Source of the DNA: Eremomyces bilateralis CBS 781.70
Lineage: Eukaryota
Assembly: GCA_010015585.1 (NCBI GenBank)
Contig: ML975149.1
Reading direction: 5' to 3' (one strand)
Length of the DNA stretch: 64,000 nucleotides
Made by a program: the position numbers and the translations under genes. Shown here piece after piece: positions 1 through 16,268 of the stretch (within the stretch, counting starts at the first letter, position 1; each line of letters begins with the position of its first letter). The notes below the pieces were generated by a model. The model had not been told where the DNA came from. It saw only the letters and a program-made list of their open reading frames with translations, and searched no databases.

Positions 1-562
1 ACATGCATCAGCGGTATCAACAGGTATCCTCCACCTCATATGAACTCCGCTTGCCATGAAATAAATCCATCGTGCTGGGTATAAAACAACTGTACAAGAA
101 CAGAATTCCTCACCCTCTACCAACTCAACTGCTCCTGAACTCCATATGCACCTCAATTACTACCCTCACCCATCCATCGTTACCAACACGACCTCCAACC
201 TTCAGATAACCCGCGAGAAGAGCCTTCCACCCATCCCCCACACCCTGCCCCCTCTTTCACATAATCTCACACTTCAAAACCCTCCTCCTCCTCTTCCTCT
301 TAGGGCCCACCCCAGCCCGGCCCCCCATCAATCCCCCGGCCTCCCCCTCCCTCAACACCGCCTGCCTCCAATCTGACGCCCCATCCGACTCCTGTCGCCC
401 CTCACCATCCTCCCGTTCAATCCCCGCTGCGTCGAGCATCTCGTCGCGGTCGCTCGGGTGCCCGTGGCGGGTGAAGGCGCGGGGGATGGTCATGGGTGGG
501 GGGAAGGGGGAGCCGGAGGACGATGGGGGGGACGGGAAACGGGTTTCTTCTCGCGGTAATTG

Positions 563-2542
563 TCACCTGTGGCCTCTTTCGCGGGGCCGGGTTTGGTGGT
601 GGTAGGTTGGGGGGGTGTCGTCGTAGGCGATGCGGATTTCGTCGCTGTGGCGGGAGGGGTCGAGGTCAGGTGGGTGGTCGTGGGATCGTGGGTGCGACTT
701 GGGGCTGGTGTCGTGGTAGCCTGTGACGGCGTGGTGGATGGGGGTGGACTCGGGGCTGATGCTGCCTTGCTTCGTGTGGCGTAGGGAGCGCTGGCGGCCG
801 GATGACGGGGGTGTGTTCGGGAGTGGTTTATCGATTGGGCTCGGCCCGACCGGAGTCTTTGGGCTCGGTCCAGCAGGTGTGCGAGCGCTGGGAGTGCGTT
901 TGTGGGAGTGTGCGGGTGTGCGTGTCGTAGTGGAGCTTGTTCGGGTTGTCGCCGGAGATGTTCGTTGTGGGGTTGTAGAAGGAGGGGACACACGTCTTGA
1001 GGCTGTTCGTGATGGAGGACTTCCAGAAGAGCGACGGCGGAGTCTGGTTGTGGTGGATTGGGGTGATCGTTTCGAATCAGAGGGTTGTCGGGCGTGCCGG
1101 GGTTGTGTGGATGCCTGTGAGGTAGGGTAAATCGGCATGGGAATTGATGGTACTCCCACTGGCCGGGCGGTGGGCGGAATGTATGTGTAGGCATAGGACG
1201 CTGACACAACAGGGTCGTGCAGTGGACCAGAAGGTCGCGGATGACGCATAGACGGGAGTTGAACGGCAGCTGTTCGTGCTGGGCTTTCTGCAGTAGTGTC
1301 TCGCCTTGGAGAAGGTTTGGTGGTCACTGGAGCAGCCCGTGGTGATTCCCGAGACCGCGCTGGTGATGGCTGACTCGTTTGCGGCACCACGGGCTGTTGC
1401 ACTGCTCGTTCCGGTGTCGATTCTAGTGGCGTATGCTCTGATCTTGCAGTGCGCTCATTCTTTTTCCCTTTCCCTTGCGGCGTTCGCTGTTCTTCGCCCT
1501 CTGCATCTGGTTGGGGTGTCGGCTGCTCGCCAGGCGCAACTCGTCTCATCACGCCGCCGAGTAAGCCGACCAACCCTGCAACAACCTCAAACTCGGTGTC
1601 CGTCAACCCTTCGTCGGCGCGATATACCTCCCTAACCGCTCCTCGTGCGAGTCGCTTGGCCCCATCATAATCATGGGCGACATCCCACAAGAACGCGGAA
1701 TGCTCCAACGCGACCGAAAGTCGAAGGGGATGGGAGCCGGGAAGGAGAGTTGTGGATAGACTCGTCGCATGTGCGAATAGCGATGTTGTGGTCGGTATGT
1801 AGTTCAGAGCTGGAAGGATGAACGAGCTAGGATGTGGAGGAAGCGGTGAAAATCCCGGTGGTAGCCCTGGTGGCAATTGAGTTCGAGCTACTGAGCTTGG
1901 CCCCGCACCCGAAGTTGGAGTCGGAACCAGACCCGTGTTCTCGGGGCGTAGGGGAGTAATATTGGAGTATGGATTGGTGATATACGAGGCTTCCGACGTG
2001 ATGCTCGGGATTGGGTCTCGCAACTTCGTGCGCCCTTGACCATTGTTGGGAGAGTTGTCCTGAGTCGGGCCTCCAGATTTCCGTTTCTGGCCCGTGCTCG
2101 GCGTTCTTCCCTCCAAGGCCCCAGATCCAGTCCCTTGTGCTGTTGGCTTGCTTCCGGAGCCGGGCGAAGATCCTCCACCAATTGATGTCACTGGTGGATT
2201 GTTATGGAAGAGGCAAAAGATATGGTAGAAGCTTGCGCGTAGCTTTGCTGCTAGGACGCGTAATTCCGCACTATGATCTGCACGCTCGACGTACGGGAGT
2301 ACGCCGACCTCGAGGGTTGCAAGACCTTCGCGGCTTAACCACAAAATGTGATGGTAAAGGTTCAAGCTCTTGGTGTCTCGAGATGTGTCCAAGCGACGCA
2401 ACTTCCGGGCGCGGAACAATCGCCGAGAAAGGAGAACGGAGAGACCGAGGATTTGGTAGAGGGACGAGGAGAGGAGCGCATGGGACTGAGATAGCGCCGC
2501 GAGTTGGCCGAGATACCTTTGGTCAACATCAGAGGATGCCAT
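563..2542 (-). CDS. Fungal 14-3-3-like domain protein with a long Ser/Pro/Thr-rich tail; possible readthrough extension to 257
   Basis: Single long ORF (563..2629); likely start MASSDVDQRYLG at 2542. Motifs LRVLAAKLRASFYHIFC and LLPGSHPLRLSVALEHSAFLWD resemble 14-3-3 helices (HPIRLGLALNFSVFYYE). Confidence 0.75.
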   Translation of the reverse strand: MASSDVDQRYLGQLAALSQSHALLSSSLYQILGLSVLLSRRLFRARKLRRLDTSRDTKSLNLYHHILWLSREGLATLEVGVLPYVERADHSAELRVLAAKLRASFYHIFCLFHNNPPVTSIGGGSSPGSGSKPTAQGTGSGALEGRTPSTGQKRKSGGPTQDNSPNNGQGRTKLRDPIPSITSEASYITNPYSNITPLRPENTGLVPTPTSGAGPSSVARTQLPPGLPPGFSPLPPHPSSFILPALNYIPTTTSLFAHATSLSTTLLPGSHPLRLSVALEHSAFLWDVAHDYDGAKRLARGAVREVYRADEGLTDTEFEVVAGLVGLLGGVMRRVAPGEQPTPQPDAEGEEQRTPQGKGKKNERTARSEHTPLESTPERAVQQPVVPQTSQPSPARSRESPRAAPVTTKPSPRRDTTAESPARTAAVQLPSMRHPRPSGPLHDPVVSASYAYTYIPPTARPVGVPSIPMPIYPTSQASTQPRHARQPSDSKRSPQSTTTRLRRRSSGSPPSRTASRRVSPPSTTPQRTSPATTRTSSTTTRTPAHSHKRTPSARTPAGPSPKTPVGPSPIDKPLPNTPPSSGRQRSLRHTKQGSISPESTPIHHAVTGYHDTSPKSHPRSHDHPPDLDPSRHSDEIRIAYDDTPPTYHHQTRPRERGHR

Positions 2543-5500
2543 GCCGCAATCGGCTGGATGATGGTCAGCCTTGTCTAAAGTCTCGGCAGATAAAACACAA
2601 GATGGATGAGGTTGCATGTGTGGCGCCATGATGTGAGAGTGAGCACGAGTATCGCTTGAGAATTCGAAGAATGGTGTCTGAGTTTACTGGAACATGGTAT
2701 TGTTGTGGAGAAGAAACGAGTGAGTGAAAGAAGAGCGAAATGCATAGTAAGTGAAATAGATTCACGGTTTGAAGAAATGAAGCTACGATTGTCATGATGC
2801 AACTGAATTCACTCACCATCTGATTTTGGTTCTCGTTACTCTCGCAATTCGTCTTCCACGGGGAGGACTGATTTGCAACCAACTGTTTGCCGGTGTCTTG
2901 TGGTCAAGCTGCCGTGCCGAGATGTTTGCTTTTATCTTCCTCAATGCTATAAGTTCTTGATCCAAGCACTTCGCGGTTTGATGTTTGAGTTCCTCTTTTC
3001 AAACCTCCCGTTAGGGGTTGATGTGCTCACGTCCGTTTCTTGCAGTCTCTCAGAACCTCGTCGCGTTATACCGGTGGCGTCCGATCCAAGCCTCCGGTCA
3101 AGAGTGGTCTGGTCCAAAGGAGTGGAATGATATCAGGACAACTTCTCGTTTCAGAGATGGGTAACTGACAGCTCAATGGCTTAGAAAGGGTATAGAAAGT
3201 GCATTCGGTTATCCGAGAGTCGACAAAGGATGAAAGTTTCCAGCTCTCGATGGTGGCAATGTAGCTTTGGACTTCACAGTGATTTCGGATGCCCAGCAGA
3301 CGATTCTCAAGTACTCGCGAGTCACCTCCGGCTCTCGTAGATCGATCCGGTACCAGTTTCCTTGGATGATGAGCCGGACTCCCCAGCCTCCTAAGCGCAG
3401 GGACTACCTTCGACAGTTTCAGAGACCCAGCGGTACCCGTAGTCAATGAGGAGCGGTCAGCACAGAATCTGGACGAGGTGATCCGACCCGTCGATGCCCC
3501 AATGATCTCGTTGAGATGCTATTTCGCGGTTCCCATTCGCCCACCCCCGTTGCCTTCGGTCCAATCAGGGGTCACGCCGCGTCTGGCTCGGAGATTTCAA
3601 TGCGCCTGCAATTGCGGATGTTTTCCAGAACGGGGCCTCGTGGAGGCTGTCGATGTCTCTATTTAGTTCCTTCGTGTCCGCTTTGCGGAATTCCTTGGGT
3701 TGTGTTGTGCCCCCTCTTGATTGACGCCGGCTTCGTTGGTGCCGGTGATGATGGTGTCGGATGTCAGGCACGGCCCGATGCCACGGTCCTTGTAACGGGA
3801 CGATGGGCGATGTTCCTGTCCACTTGGATAGATGCGAGAAACGGGGATTGAATCATTGCGCTTTGCAAGGAATTCAAGATCGTTCACCTCTATCAATTGG
3901 AACCCCACAAGATCAATCGCAACGGCGATTTCAGACGGGTATGGAAGAGCCTTTATGCTGACTCTTTGATGAGGCGGTGTGGATATGGCCAGAGCTTTCC
4001 GCGCCTCTCACTTCGTCTTTGAATCGTTTCAACGTCACGGTAATTTGCAGGAACCGATCTTTCTTCCTTTTGCATGCTTCGTTTGGCTTGCTGGCCGCTC
4101 AATTTGGCGACTTGTCGTCCATTTGTAGCCTGTGGGGTTGAAATTTGAGGATTCTTTCGTGCCAACGTTCGCTGCAAGCTGCAGGGAGCTCTCGTTCGAT
4201 GACACTGCGGCTGCTGTGCAAATGCTGTGGCTCACAAGCCACCAGTTGGTCTCGCTTCTGCTGTAGAATCAAAATCTCATGAACCAAGTTACAAAGATGA
4301 GCAATATCCTTTGCAAGCTTATTGCAGCACCGCGACGAGTTGACCAAGGTCAATTGTTTTAAGACAGAGAGTTTAGACTTCGCACTCTCGAGCAGCAAGA
4401 CAACAACGAAGAAATGACACACATTCCTCTTCAAAGCCGGGCAGGCCAGACCAGCCGATGAACTGGCAATTATTCTTAGGGAAAAGCTATAGTTACAGGG
4501 TTATGATAGAACCTCTGCATGATTGACACGTAGCCCAGCGTCCTGCAGTCTGATGCAGGACCCAAACCAAGTTGGGGAGTTCACGTTGGATTGCCAATAC
4601 CACAACCCTTTCTGCTTTAAATTGCCCCAGATGACGCTGATGTGTCGCCAGAATCTACCCGCGGTAGGAGGGCTTTCCGGCTCCGCCCTGCGATGGATTG
4701 AGCGTTGGTAGCCTCTTGATCCATCGAGGGATGTTAAGACTTTTGGGCATCCTCGGACTTTGCTCCGCTGGCAAGTGTTTCAGCTCAATTGAGACGAGAA
4801 GGCACGGATCCAGTGGCTTTAGCATTGACTTGAACGTTTCGGGGCTGAGAGTCTGGGGAAGCCAGGCCCCCGCCTGTATCGCCTCGTAATTTGGAGACTC
4901 AACGCCTTGCACACTTTGAGGCTCGAGTATGCCGCCAAAGAAGCGCTAGCCGGGCTTAGTTTGGTGGTGAACAACTCCCAGCGTGCCACGCAACCCTCCA
5001 ACTTCATCAACCTTATGTCGACTTTGAGTACTTGCTGTTAACGTCGCGCTGATGATGACGGTCGTGCCATTGGACCGACTGCCAGGTCATCACTCGAGGC
5101 ATGTTCCTTGTATCAAAATCAACGATGACATGGGACTTCGGTGTGGCCCGTCATCGCCCCACCCCGAACAACCAAAACTCCGTGTCCTGTCGCATGTCAA
5201 TACGCATGCCCGTTTTGCCGTGACGCTTGTGGATTCCTGCAGCATCAATCCGTTTGCTTGGGCTCTTCATACATGGGTGAAGATTACTGAATGGACGGCA
5301 AACAAACGAATTCTGACCCGCGGTACAGCTGCTGGTACCTCATATCATCATCCAGGCACATCTTGCTCTTCAAGTCTTCGTCTTTCGTTTAATTTCGAAG
5401 CCAAAGCGACCATAAACAGTCTTCATCACCAACTTGCCGGGCCGTTTCGGAGATCATCTCCCAAGCAATTTGGATTGGATCCGTCATTTGCTAAACTGGA

Positions 5501-14124: not shown

Positions 14125-16268
14125 ATGGCTCCTCTCCTCCCATTCAGGGACATCAATGTCCATGTTTCAGGCTCCCACTACTCCTTCCTCTCCCCCTCCT
14201 CCCCGAATTCACCAACCCTCGTCGTGGACCGTCCGTCCGGCGACCTACGGCTGCACGATGGCAAGCTGCTCGGAGCACGGCGCATATCGAGCATCGCTGG
14301 CATCTTAGGCATCATCCGGCTCCGACTCGACAAATACATCGTCGTCATCTCGAAGGCGCGACCGGTCGGACGGATCCGGGGTCATATGACCTACAAAGTT
14401 CAGGAGACCGAGCTCCTCCCTTTGCGCGAACGACCGTTGCATGATCATGACGAGGATACATATGTAGCGTTGCTCAAGTCAATGCTGAAAACGGGACCTA
14501 TGTACTTCTCCTACTCAATCGACATTACGAACAGCTTCCAGAGACAGGGACAGGCGGATCTGGCTTTGCCACTGTGGAAACGCGCAGACGATCGGTTCTT
14601 CTGGAATCGATTCATTCAGTCGGACCTGATAGACTTGCGATCCGGTCTGGCAACCACCGCTGGATACCGCCATTCTCAAGGACCGCAACCGGGAGCCGAT
14701 CCTTACATTTTGCCGGTTATCTTTGGAGTCTTGGAAATTCGACCCACGACGATTAAGACTACACCGCTCACATACATCTTGATCACGAGAAGATCACGAC
14801 ATCGAGCAGGTACGAGGTATTTCTCCCGAGGGATAGACGAAGAAGGTCATGTTTCAAATTTCAATGAGACCGAACAAACGATCGTTTTGAACGACAGTGG
14901 CAATGGCGGATTCGGCGGGAGACTCGGATCGGACAACAAGGAAATGCAGGTTTTGTCATATGTCCAGACGAGAGGCAGCGTCCCCGTCTACTGGGCGGAG
15001 ATCAACACGTTGAAATACATACCGAAGCTCCAGGTTCGCCCGATCGAGAGTTCCGTGCGCTCGGCGAAGTTGCACTTTGACGAGCAGATCCAGACGTACG
15101 GTGACAACTATCTGGTCAACCTGGTGAATCAAAAAGGGCGAGAAATTCGAATCAAAGAAGCCTATGAGCAACTGGTCAAGATCGTCGTCTCTAGCCCAAG
15201 GGAAGGCGTCGAAGCTGATAAGATCACCGACGAGAAATTGCACGTTATCGAGCCGAAGAAGGAGAAGTCGAAATATGATCGACTCCATTATGTCTATTTT
15301 GACTTCCATAACGAGACCAAGGGCCTTCGCTGGCATCGTGCACAACTCCTGCTTCAGCAATTGGAACAGGGACTCCGGGCGGACGGCTACTTCCGCGGCG
15401 TGGACTATCCAGGCGATGCCGACGGCCGAATGGAAGTCCGCAACCGGCAGACGGGCGTCGTTCGCACCAACTGCATGGACTGTCTCGACCGGACGAACGT
15501 GGTGCAAAGCATGCTCGGCCGCTACATGCTTACCCGCATGTTGATCGACCTGGGAATTCTCCGCGAAGGCGATGAAATCTCCCAGGAACTGGAATTCGAG
15601 AACCTGTTCCGGAATATTTGGGCGGATAACGCGGATATCGTGTCGAAGGCATACTCTGGCACCGGGGCGCTGAAGACGGATTTCACCCGGACCGGCAACC
15701 GAACGAAGGCAGGCATGGCGCAGGACTTGAGCAACTCGTGCACGCGATACGTGAAGAACAATTTCCTCGACGGCCCGCGACAGGACGCGTACGATCTGTT
15801 CCTGGGAACCTACCTGCCATCCACCGGCGGCGCCGGCAGCAATCTGATCTTCGTCGATCGGCGTCCCCTCTTCATCCAAGCGATGCCGTACTTCCTCGCC
15901 GCGAGCATCTTTTTCGTCCTGGTCGGCTCGTTCGCACGACGGGATACTAGCACCGCCGTCTGGCCGTTCCGGTTGATCATGCTGGTCTTCCTTGGCATTG
16001 GGGCGGCGACGTTCCATTTCATCTGGTCGCATGGGACGCTCTTCGTAAGTCTCCGAGCCCTTTGTAGCGACCGTGTTCCATAGCTAACGACGAACAGGTT
16101 AATTGGCCGAAACTCAACACCCCGCCATACGCGGTCGAGGGATATCAGGATGCATTGGACCGTGTCCGCACGAATCCAATATTGGGCAGCACAGTGGCAC
16201 GGCATGAGAGGGGCAAGAGCATCGCCCGACTCGGCTTCATGGAAGAAGGGAAGAAGCGCATTGAATAG
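14125..16268 (+). CDS. SAC1: Sac1 phosphoinositide (PI4P) phosphatase; exons 14125-16044 and 16098-16268
   Basis: Catalytic RTNCMDCLDRTN, RAGTRYFSRGID, QTRGSVP; two C-terminal TM segments; GTAAGT...GCTAAC...CAG intron. Confidence 0.95.

Follow-up and report, generated by a model that had tools for sequence, protein, structure and literature searches.

Does translation always end at the first stop codon of a 14-3-3-like gene of the fungus Eremomyces bilateralis CBS 781.70, or do some ribosomes pass this codon and thereby add a lipid-anchor signal to the protein? The gene lies on the minus strand of a 64,000-nucleotide (nt) stretch of contig ML975149.1 (assembly GCA_010015585.1), which is referred to here as the window. 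Its main open reading frame (ORF) ends at a TGA, behind which the same frame stays open for 101 codons and finishes with a run of basic residues and the sequence Cys-Glu-Ile-Met (CEIM), a CaaX-type prenylation box. A preliminary description, made from the letters of the window, had interpreted this arrangement as leaky termination leading to a CaaX-tailed isoform. The comparison with orthologous loci reported here supports that interpretation, and we consider it likely that the gene undergoes conserved programmed stop-codon readthrough yielding a prenylated isoform.

Results

An Open Frame and a CaaX Tail Follow the First Stop

The first stop, TGA at 563..565 (minus strand, as are all positions below unless the plus strand is named), is preceded by AGG (568-566) and followed directly by CAATTA (557..562; CAA 562-560, TTA 559-557), which fits the readthrough context CARYYA. 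The stop is proposed to be leaky, and its sequence shows 0 differences in the two contigs (456-587 and 558-654) that cover it in X1, the one public sequencing run containing this stretch and the source of our transcript evidence. Behind it lies an in-frame extension of 101 codons (260..562), which is reached only if the TGA is decoded, and a second TGA (257..259) terminates the extended isoform. The conserved tail, GPKRKRRRRVLK-CEIM (260..307), is composed of a basic run (GPKRKRRRRVLK, 307-272) and the CaaX box (271-260; Cys 271-269, Glu, Ile, Met 262-260), the last 16 residues of the extension being GPKRKRRRRVLKCEIM, followed by TGA 259-257. The sequence AGG TGA CAA TTA at the ORF end, the 101 open codons to 257 and all peptides quoted in the preliminary description were verified, confirming its observation of a stop, an open frame and a CaaX tail. 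According to the relevant parts of a study of farnesyltransferase rules (PMC3017772), a1 is barely selected, a2 is an uncharged hydrophobic residue and Met is accepted at X. In agreement with these rules, CEIM, in the window and in the five loci of group A described below, has its Cys four from the end, Ile at a2 and Met at X; CEIM was also made as a test substrate in that study.

Judged from the window alone, this arrangement is unusual, not decisive. The 64-kb window contains 22 ORFs that measure 250 codons or more from stop to stop; 2 of them have an in-frame extension of at least 101 codons, and 5 end in TGA followed by C. First-order Markov simulations of the 3′ region, 20,000 in number, produced a frame open for at least 101 codons in 1.9% of cases, an end resembling a CaaX box in 0.125% and the two together in 0.005%. 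The codon-usage score of the extension is +0.09 in frame 0 versus −0.50 and −0.24 in the other frames, a weak preference that arises partly since the other frames hold stops. The window is thus only suggestive, and the weight of the argument comes from the orthologs.

The Same Tail Lies behind the Same Stop in Orthologous Loci

A protein search returned 289 relatives, of which the 120 listed are Dothideomycete "14-3-3 proteins" of 450-660 amino acids (aa). Among these 120 annotated orthologs, none has a CaaX box at its C terminus, and none carries either the CEIM tail or the extension motif of group B (see below), which indicates that annotation treats the first stop as final and that no ortholog has a sense codon there. 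Arg is the last residue before the stop in 72 of the 120, which could reflect either an influence of the final codon on how translation terminates or what is left of an AG/GT splice site. The DNA of 80 orthologous loci was then fetched from metagenome contigs, and the last tblastn match at each locus was extended in frame to the first stop and from there to the next stop. At 13 loci the contig ended too early for this, which left 67 with a readable first stop. Two groups with extensions were analysed, group A with five loci (four distinct) and group B with 17 (nine distinct), giving 14 sequences when the window is counted with the 13 distinct loci. In the window and in all 22 loci of groups A and B, the first stop is TGA.

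Group A comprises L005, L008, L062, L064 and L065 (the last two nearly identical), all of which read R-TGA-CGG and continue with open in-frame extensions of 69, 66, 62, 57 and 57 codons, respectively. Their tails end in ...RSRGLRCEIM, ...RSRVLRCEIM, ...PSGRLRCEIM and ...GSGRLRCEIM, each followed by a stop, and the window ends in LKCEIM; the N-terminal domains of group A and the window are 48-50% identical. The tail of the window has G-P, basic residues and L-[KR]-C-E-I-M-stop in common with group A. Across the five sequences, L-[KR]-C-E-I-M exactly at the C terminus is invariant and the basic run varies (KRKRRRR, GLRGRRSR, RRRPSGR). Furthermore, the tail codons differ synonymously (Leu TTG/CTG, Cys TGT/TGC, Arg AGG/CGC), and the second stop is either TGA or TAG.

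The pairwise tests, from which L065 was left out as a near-duplicate, show the signature of a coding frame. L005 and L008 are separated by one 9-nt gap and by 7/12/18 differences at the three codon positions over 66 codons, with a ratio of nonsynonymous to synonymous differences (pN/pS) of 0.43 in frame 0 and of 1.86 and 0.94 in frames 1 and 2; L062 and L064 are separated by one 15-nt gap and 6/5/11 differences over 57 codons, with pN/pS of 0.30 in frame 0 and of 1.39 and 1.27 in frames 1 and 2. Frame 0 has the lowest pN/pS in 5/5 group A pairs. Met occurs in the group A extensions as the last residue only, which excludes independent initiation at an AUG within them. The preliminary description had proposed that orthologs be compared for the stop, an open frame with synonymous-biased substitutions and a terminal CaaX, and this comparison is positive in 5 of the 67 loci (four distinct). 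It had also considered that orthologs might have a sense codon in place of the stop, or lack any conserved extension or CaaX; neither was seen, with TGA in 22/22 loci, the tail in 0/120 listed proteins, and both extension and CaaX kept in group A.

A Different Extension Is Constrained in Pleosporales-like Loci

On a quick tree, the 17 loci of group B are placed among named Pleosporales, where L018 adjoins Parastagonospora and L007 adjoins Macroventuria. Nine of them were analysed (L003, L007, L015, L018, L023, L034, L038, L040 and L047) after eight near-duplicates had been dropped (L016, L039, L041-L043, L045, L053 and L055). Most have the stop context TGA-CTAG, with CTCG in L007, L018 and L034 and CAATCA in L023. 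The in-frame extension behind this stop, 43-59 codons long, has the motif L-x-x-x-G...R-[KR]-[ML]-[DE]-V-[QE]-W...E-A...L-P...S-x-S-T-P (in short, RKMEVQW..EA..LP..S.STP) and contains no Cys and no CaaX box. Over four independent close pairs, codon-position differences amount to 29/15/93 (chi-square p=4e-17), and for L040-L047 they are 4/1/25, with a pN/pS of 0.07. Frame 0 has the lowest pN/pS in 35 of the 36 group B pairs, which are non-independent, the exception being L040-L015, a poorly aligned pair. All four Val codons are used at the invariant Val of the extension. A common origin of the CaaX-type and the Pleosporales-type extensions is not supported (hhalign probability 0.1%), and likenesses between them seen by eye (LRP..S.SP, EA.VL) were dropped.

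Controls common to both groups locate the constraint in the extension and in its frame. Sense frame 0 is the only frame that is stop-free in 14/14 extensions, every other frame, sense or antisense, being stopped in some; frame-0 pN/pS ranges from 0.07 to 0.6 across the groups, and the indels in close pairs are multiples of three. DNA identities over the last 150 nt of the coding sequence (CDS), the extension and the 150 nt after the second stop are 67%, 78% and 38% for L005-L008, 74%, 80% and 30% for L062-L064, 59%, 80% and 40% for L040-L047, and 69%, 84% and 20% for L007-L015. In close pairs, the extension is thus conserved at least as well as the end of the main ORF, and past the second stop identity is 16-41%, so that the constraint ends there. 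Together, these observations make translation of the group A and group B extensions, in our view, highly probable.

TGA Followed by C Is the Conserved Element at the Stop

C follows TGA in 14/14 sequences, within the contexts CAATTA, CAATCA, CGG, CTAG and CTCG. All 14 contexts belong to classes described as leaky in the relevant parts of two reports (PMC4207609, PMC4132726): UGA CU(A)(G) was shown to be leaky in fungi and in human cells (PMC4207609), UGA CGG and UGA CUA are readthrough contexts seen in viruses, and CARYYA, or CARNBA in yeast, is a further readthrough context (PMC4132726). The first of these reports also states, where it deals with the subject, that selenocysteine machinery is absent from fungi (PMC4207609). 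The preliminary description had emphasised the CARYYA signal, which is indeed present in the window as CAATTA, but it is not conserved, recurring in only one of the 13 other sequences (L023, CAATCA). The conserved element is TGA then C in a leaky context, CARYYA being one interchangeable form of it.

Gene Model and Transcript Evidence

The main CDS (566..2542) encodes 659 aa, comprising a 14-3-3-like N-terminal domain of ~340 aa and a long tail, rich in Ser, Thr, Pro and Arg, that ends in ...RPRERGHR. Upstream of it are a 263-nt intron in the 5′ leader (2554..2816), with a GTGAGT donor, a CTGAC branch site and a CAG acceptor, and a 5′ exon of untranslated leader (covering at least 2817..3000) that ends in ...CAGATG at 2817. 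One X1 contig joins 2553 to 2817, and another covers 2817-3000. The joint has CT..AC ends on the plus strand, equivalent to GT..AG on the minus strand, and the depth of the spliced contig is 461.5 versus 36 for the unspliced one; because this spliced GT..AG joint is seen in X1, the run is taken as holding RNA. The first ATG of the naive long ORF (2629) lies inside the intron, and the N terminus MASSDVDQ, beginning at ATG 2542, is common to 12/12 aligned orthologs; the start is therefore placed at ATG 2542 and the main product at 659 aa. The terminal ATG of the upstream exon (2819-2817) is, after splicing, out of frame with this start and could head a short upstream ORF overlapping it. At window position 2564, an X1 contig has a loose end made of 23 letters of sequencing adapter, which indicates that some X1 contig ends are library artefacts.

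At the stop itself, X1 contigs are unspliced across 456-587 and 558-654, at depths of 194 and 353. Further contigs lie at 383-471 and 1-242, with 243-382 covered at low summed depth only, which indicates that the transcript includes the extension. The preliminary description had raised two ways in which the tail might be lost or the stop avoided at the RNA level, polyadenylation before 257 and excision of the stop through AG/GTGACA. Neither is apparent in the X1 contigs, which cover the TGA and the extension and contain no such joint.

As judged from sequence profiles, the N-terminal domain appears to be distantly 14-3-3-like. Pfam PF00244 matches the window protein with 23.2 bits, below the 33.2 cut-off, over residues 282-346 only, and when a profile built from 13 orthologs was compared with solved 14-3-3 chains, the match was confined to ~residues 150-226 (E=1e-7); a precomputed PF00244 match is present in many orthologs. 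An AYDDTPP-like C-terminal motif was noticed by eye shortly before the stop in the window and likewise in distant orthologs. Elsewhere in the window, a 672-codon ORF on the plus strand ends in TAG CTAACG (~16081-16083), and its frame is open for 110 codons further; an intron is more likely than readthrough at this site, because CTAAC is the fungal branch-site consensus.

A Further Subclade Splices at the 3′ End

In a sister subclade formed by L009, L022, L054 and L066, a canonical intron (G/GTACGT...GCTGAT...TAG) of 100-149 nt, with lengths of differing phase, contains the first in-frame stop. Behind it is a conserved final exon (RRRA[IV]LRALE...), whose motif is present in the annotated ortholog P0095. 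Proteins ending in ...EGYVRPRQ[QH] are therefore probably intron-retained, truncated models. The C-terminal motif of this subclade was also met with elsewhere. L032 has a 24-nt piece (2440-2463) that looks like a collapsed intron (GTGAGT...TTGAT...AATAG), is too short for a normal intron and carries an in-frame TGA at the homologous site, and the 144-codon in-frame extension behind it includes the motif; in L037 and in L076/L077, the motif stands in frame behind a TGA not followed by C.

Discussion

In the mechanism we propose for the window gene, most ribosomes would stop at UGA 565-563 and release a soluble protein of 659 aa, with the 14-3-3-like domain and a long, presumably disordered tail. 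The UGA would form a weak termination context (UGA-C; here UGA CAA UUA), owing to which a minority of ribosomes would decode it with a near-cognate tRNA and continue for 101 further codons to UGA 259-257. Most of the extension would be a variable linker, its first ~85 codons, which have no detectable relatives, probably acting as a disordered linker, and its final 16 residues, given above, would supply the basic run and the CaaX box. Expected processing would consist of farnesylation of the Cys, removal of -EIM and carboxyl-methylation. The farnesyl group and the basic run would then anchor a minor fraction of the protein at negatively charged membranes, as in K-Ras4B, in which a basic run and a farnesyl group together bring about membrane targeting.

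Could the stop instead be removed by splicing, with AG/GTGACA serving as a weak donor and a downstream exon supplying the CaaX tail, which would make recoding unnecessary? Such an event has a precedent in the stop-holding canonical intron and conserved final exon of the L009 subclade, with the exon motif in P0095, and the window, group A and 4/9 group B sequences have a GTGAC that overlaps the stop. However, the X1 contigs are unspliced at the stop, at depths (194/353) not far from the 461.5 of the gene body, in a run that does show splicing of the 5′ intron. When the sequences were scanned for a donor combined with a branch site and an acceptor, the window and group A yielded no candidate (0/5) and the nine group B sequences yielded two, which are frame-breaking and non-shared; GT is absent at the stop in 5/9 of the latter. 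Furthermore, conservation at the protein level begins at the first codon past the TGA, and GTGACA is without the G that fungal donors usually carry at position +5. An intron removing the stop was accordingly rejected for the window and for groups A and B, given the unspliced contigs and the want of intron candidates, and we hold splicing of this kind to be very unlikely. The comparative data show protein constraint beyond the stop and not how the stop is passed, which leaves room for another route, namely stage-specific adenosine-to-inosine editing (UGA to UGG) or a lineage-specific suppressor tRNA; stop-loss editing in sexual development is known for some filamentous ascomycetes. Against this, all 14 stops are in leaky contexts, which editing would not require, and the X1 contigs have the A of the TGA with no variant listed. 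The base before the edited A would moreover be G here, not the U preferred in reported fungal editing, and either of these routes seems to us highly improbable.

The open frame might also be a by-product of a G+C-rich, low-complexity 3′ untranslated region, and the tail an RNA element or a coincidence. In keeping with this, extensions of 101 codons or more follow 2/22 long ORFs of the window, the basic run is encoded by a purine repeat, which reads as Lys and Arg in one of three frames, the extension is without protein homologues in the searches run, and all five sequences have the same GAGATTATG in the tail. Yet the changes within the tail are synonymous, including a three-letter swap between Arg codons, indels are multiples of three, third positions change most, and the frame is open in 14/14 sequences in which the other five frames are stopped in some; with similarity falling at the second stop and no conserved RNA structure, non-coding conservation or chance is scarcely credible. 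Readthrough could, on the other hand, be real and the tail serve as something other than a lipid anchor, the basic run being a nuclear localisation signal or CEIM another type of C-terminal motif. PKRKRRRR resembles a classical monopartite nuclear signal, and the Pleosporales-like extensions are without any Cys, so that the extensions of this family do not all serve anchoring. What is invariant in the window and group A is nevertheless the C-terminal L-[KR]-C-E-I-M and not the basic run, and the position of the Cys, four from the end, together with Ile at a2 and a terminal Met matches the farnesyltransferase pattern; a tail with a non-anchoring role thus appears unlikely.

Several observations weigh against readthrough to a lipid-anchored isoform, among them the likeness of PKRKRRRR to a nuclear signal and the intron of the L009 subclade, which means that the family also splices at its 3′ end. 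Readthrough itself, its frequency, prenylation of the tail and localisation are inferred from sequence. The transcript evidence consists of contigs of one run, labelled "RNA?" and possibly derived from the same material as the assembly, and these contigs give no transcript ends or levels and would have dropped rare spliced forms. The CARYYA hexamer is absent from 12/13 of the other group A and B sequences. A conserved RNA structure 3′ of the stop was looked for and not found (group B consensus energy −0.19 kcal/mol), and in the window the predicted fold of the 131 nt behind the stop is no more stable than that of shuffled sequences (z=+1.0), so that readthrough efficiency would depend on the short context alone. 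A search with the 101 aa of the extension against 1.84 billion representatives gave 0 protein matches, and neither region 540-790 of the read-through protein nor the extension region of L008 matched any predicted protein. The pooled codon-position differences of group A (13/17/29, p=0.03) are modest. Finally, similarity between the window extension and group A could be detected over the last ~16 codons only and not in the middle, and it is on those codons and on the frame that the case for conservation in the window rests.

In the quick tree (LG+G4, 72 rows, SH-aLRT support only), the branch of the window is long (0.99) and its pairing with Lineolata weak (support 80); the window falls within a clade (support 92) to which group A (support 99) and Venturiales-like sequences also belong. 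If this placement holds, the CaaX extension predates the split and is expected behind the stops of Venturiales and Lineolata. On balance, we slightly favour a broader picture in which a leaky UGA has been kept across much of the Dothideomycetes with tails that differ, a polybasic farnesylation box in the lineage of the window and its relatives and the unrelated conserved peptide RKMEVQW... in Pleosporales, whereas a third lineage would reach its C-terminal module by splicing.

If readthrough to the CaaX tail is correct, one gene could yield soluble and membrane-bound forms of a protein. If the broader picture holds, the rate of readthrough would act as a dial for how much of a phospho-binding scaffold is in the cytosol and how much at the membrane, and the gene would provide the first evolutionarily conserved lipid-anchored isoform made by readthrough in any organism. 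Functional readthrough in fungi has been established mainly for hidden peroxisomal signals, and a prenylation box would extend the principle to lipid anchoring. This class of isoform is invisible in current proteomes, including those of well-studied plant-associated Pleosporales, as 0/120 listed orthologs carry either extension. The locus offers a clean test case, with one stop codon and one Cys, and the three known leaky contexts at one homologous stop (UGA CGG, UGA CUAG/CUCG and UGA CAAUYA) constitute a natural series for relating context to readthrough level. In the Creative Commons-licensed literature of PubMed Central and bioRxiv, which leaves out subscription journals and supplements, we found no conserved or tested readthrough-dependent CaaX box and no report of readthrough in a fungal 14-3-3-like gene.

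How does the proposed isoform compare with known systems? K-Ras4B combines a polybasic region with a farnesylated CVIM, and the window tail is similar in having a run of Lys and Arg right before a C-a-I-M box at the extreme C terminus; unlike K-Ras4B, it has Glu at a1, belongs to a protein without a GTPase domain, is reached only past a stop, and its prenylation is predicted. The peroxisomal isoforms that arise by readthrough from metabolic enzymes of fungi and animals (Ustilago Pgk1, Tpi1, Art1 and Rpe1; human LDHB and MDH1; Stiebler et al. 2014, PMC4207609; Schueren et al. 2014, PMC4359377) likewise depend on a UGA that is conserved together with its short leaky context (UGA CU(A)(G)), on an in-frame extension that is also conserved and on a short C-terminal targeting signal that sends a minor isoform to a second location, which is predicted here. 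They differ in that their signal is a peroxisomal targeting signal 1 (PTS1), whereas the one in the window and group A is a basic run and a CaaX box at the end of a long extension (57-101 codons), UGA CGG and UGA CAAUUA are among the contexts, and the protein is a 14-3-3-like scaffold, not an enzyme, known from sequence alone. The window's UGA CAA UUA is the hexamer of the tobacco mosaic virus-type stop-CARYYA signal, as that signal is set out in the pertinent part of Loughran et al. (2014, PMC4132726), with CAA UCA in L023; here, however, the signal is in a cellular gene, and the other 12/13 sequences are without it. That readthrough may append a CaaX box has been suggested before by genome-wide screens, by a predicted prenylation signal in one Drosophila readthrough extension (Dunn et al. 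2013, PMC3840789) and by a predictor result for the readthrough extension of Arabidopsis MT1C, which carries CVLC (bioRxiv 10.1101/2021.11.09.467898). As far as the relevant parts of these reports go, both are predictor results in single species, given with neither conservation nor function, whereas the loci compared here, from diverged lineages, have kept the stop, the frame and the CaaX box, together with a coding signature.

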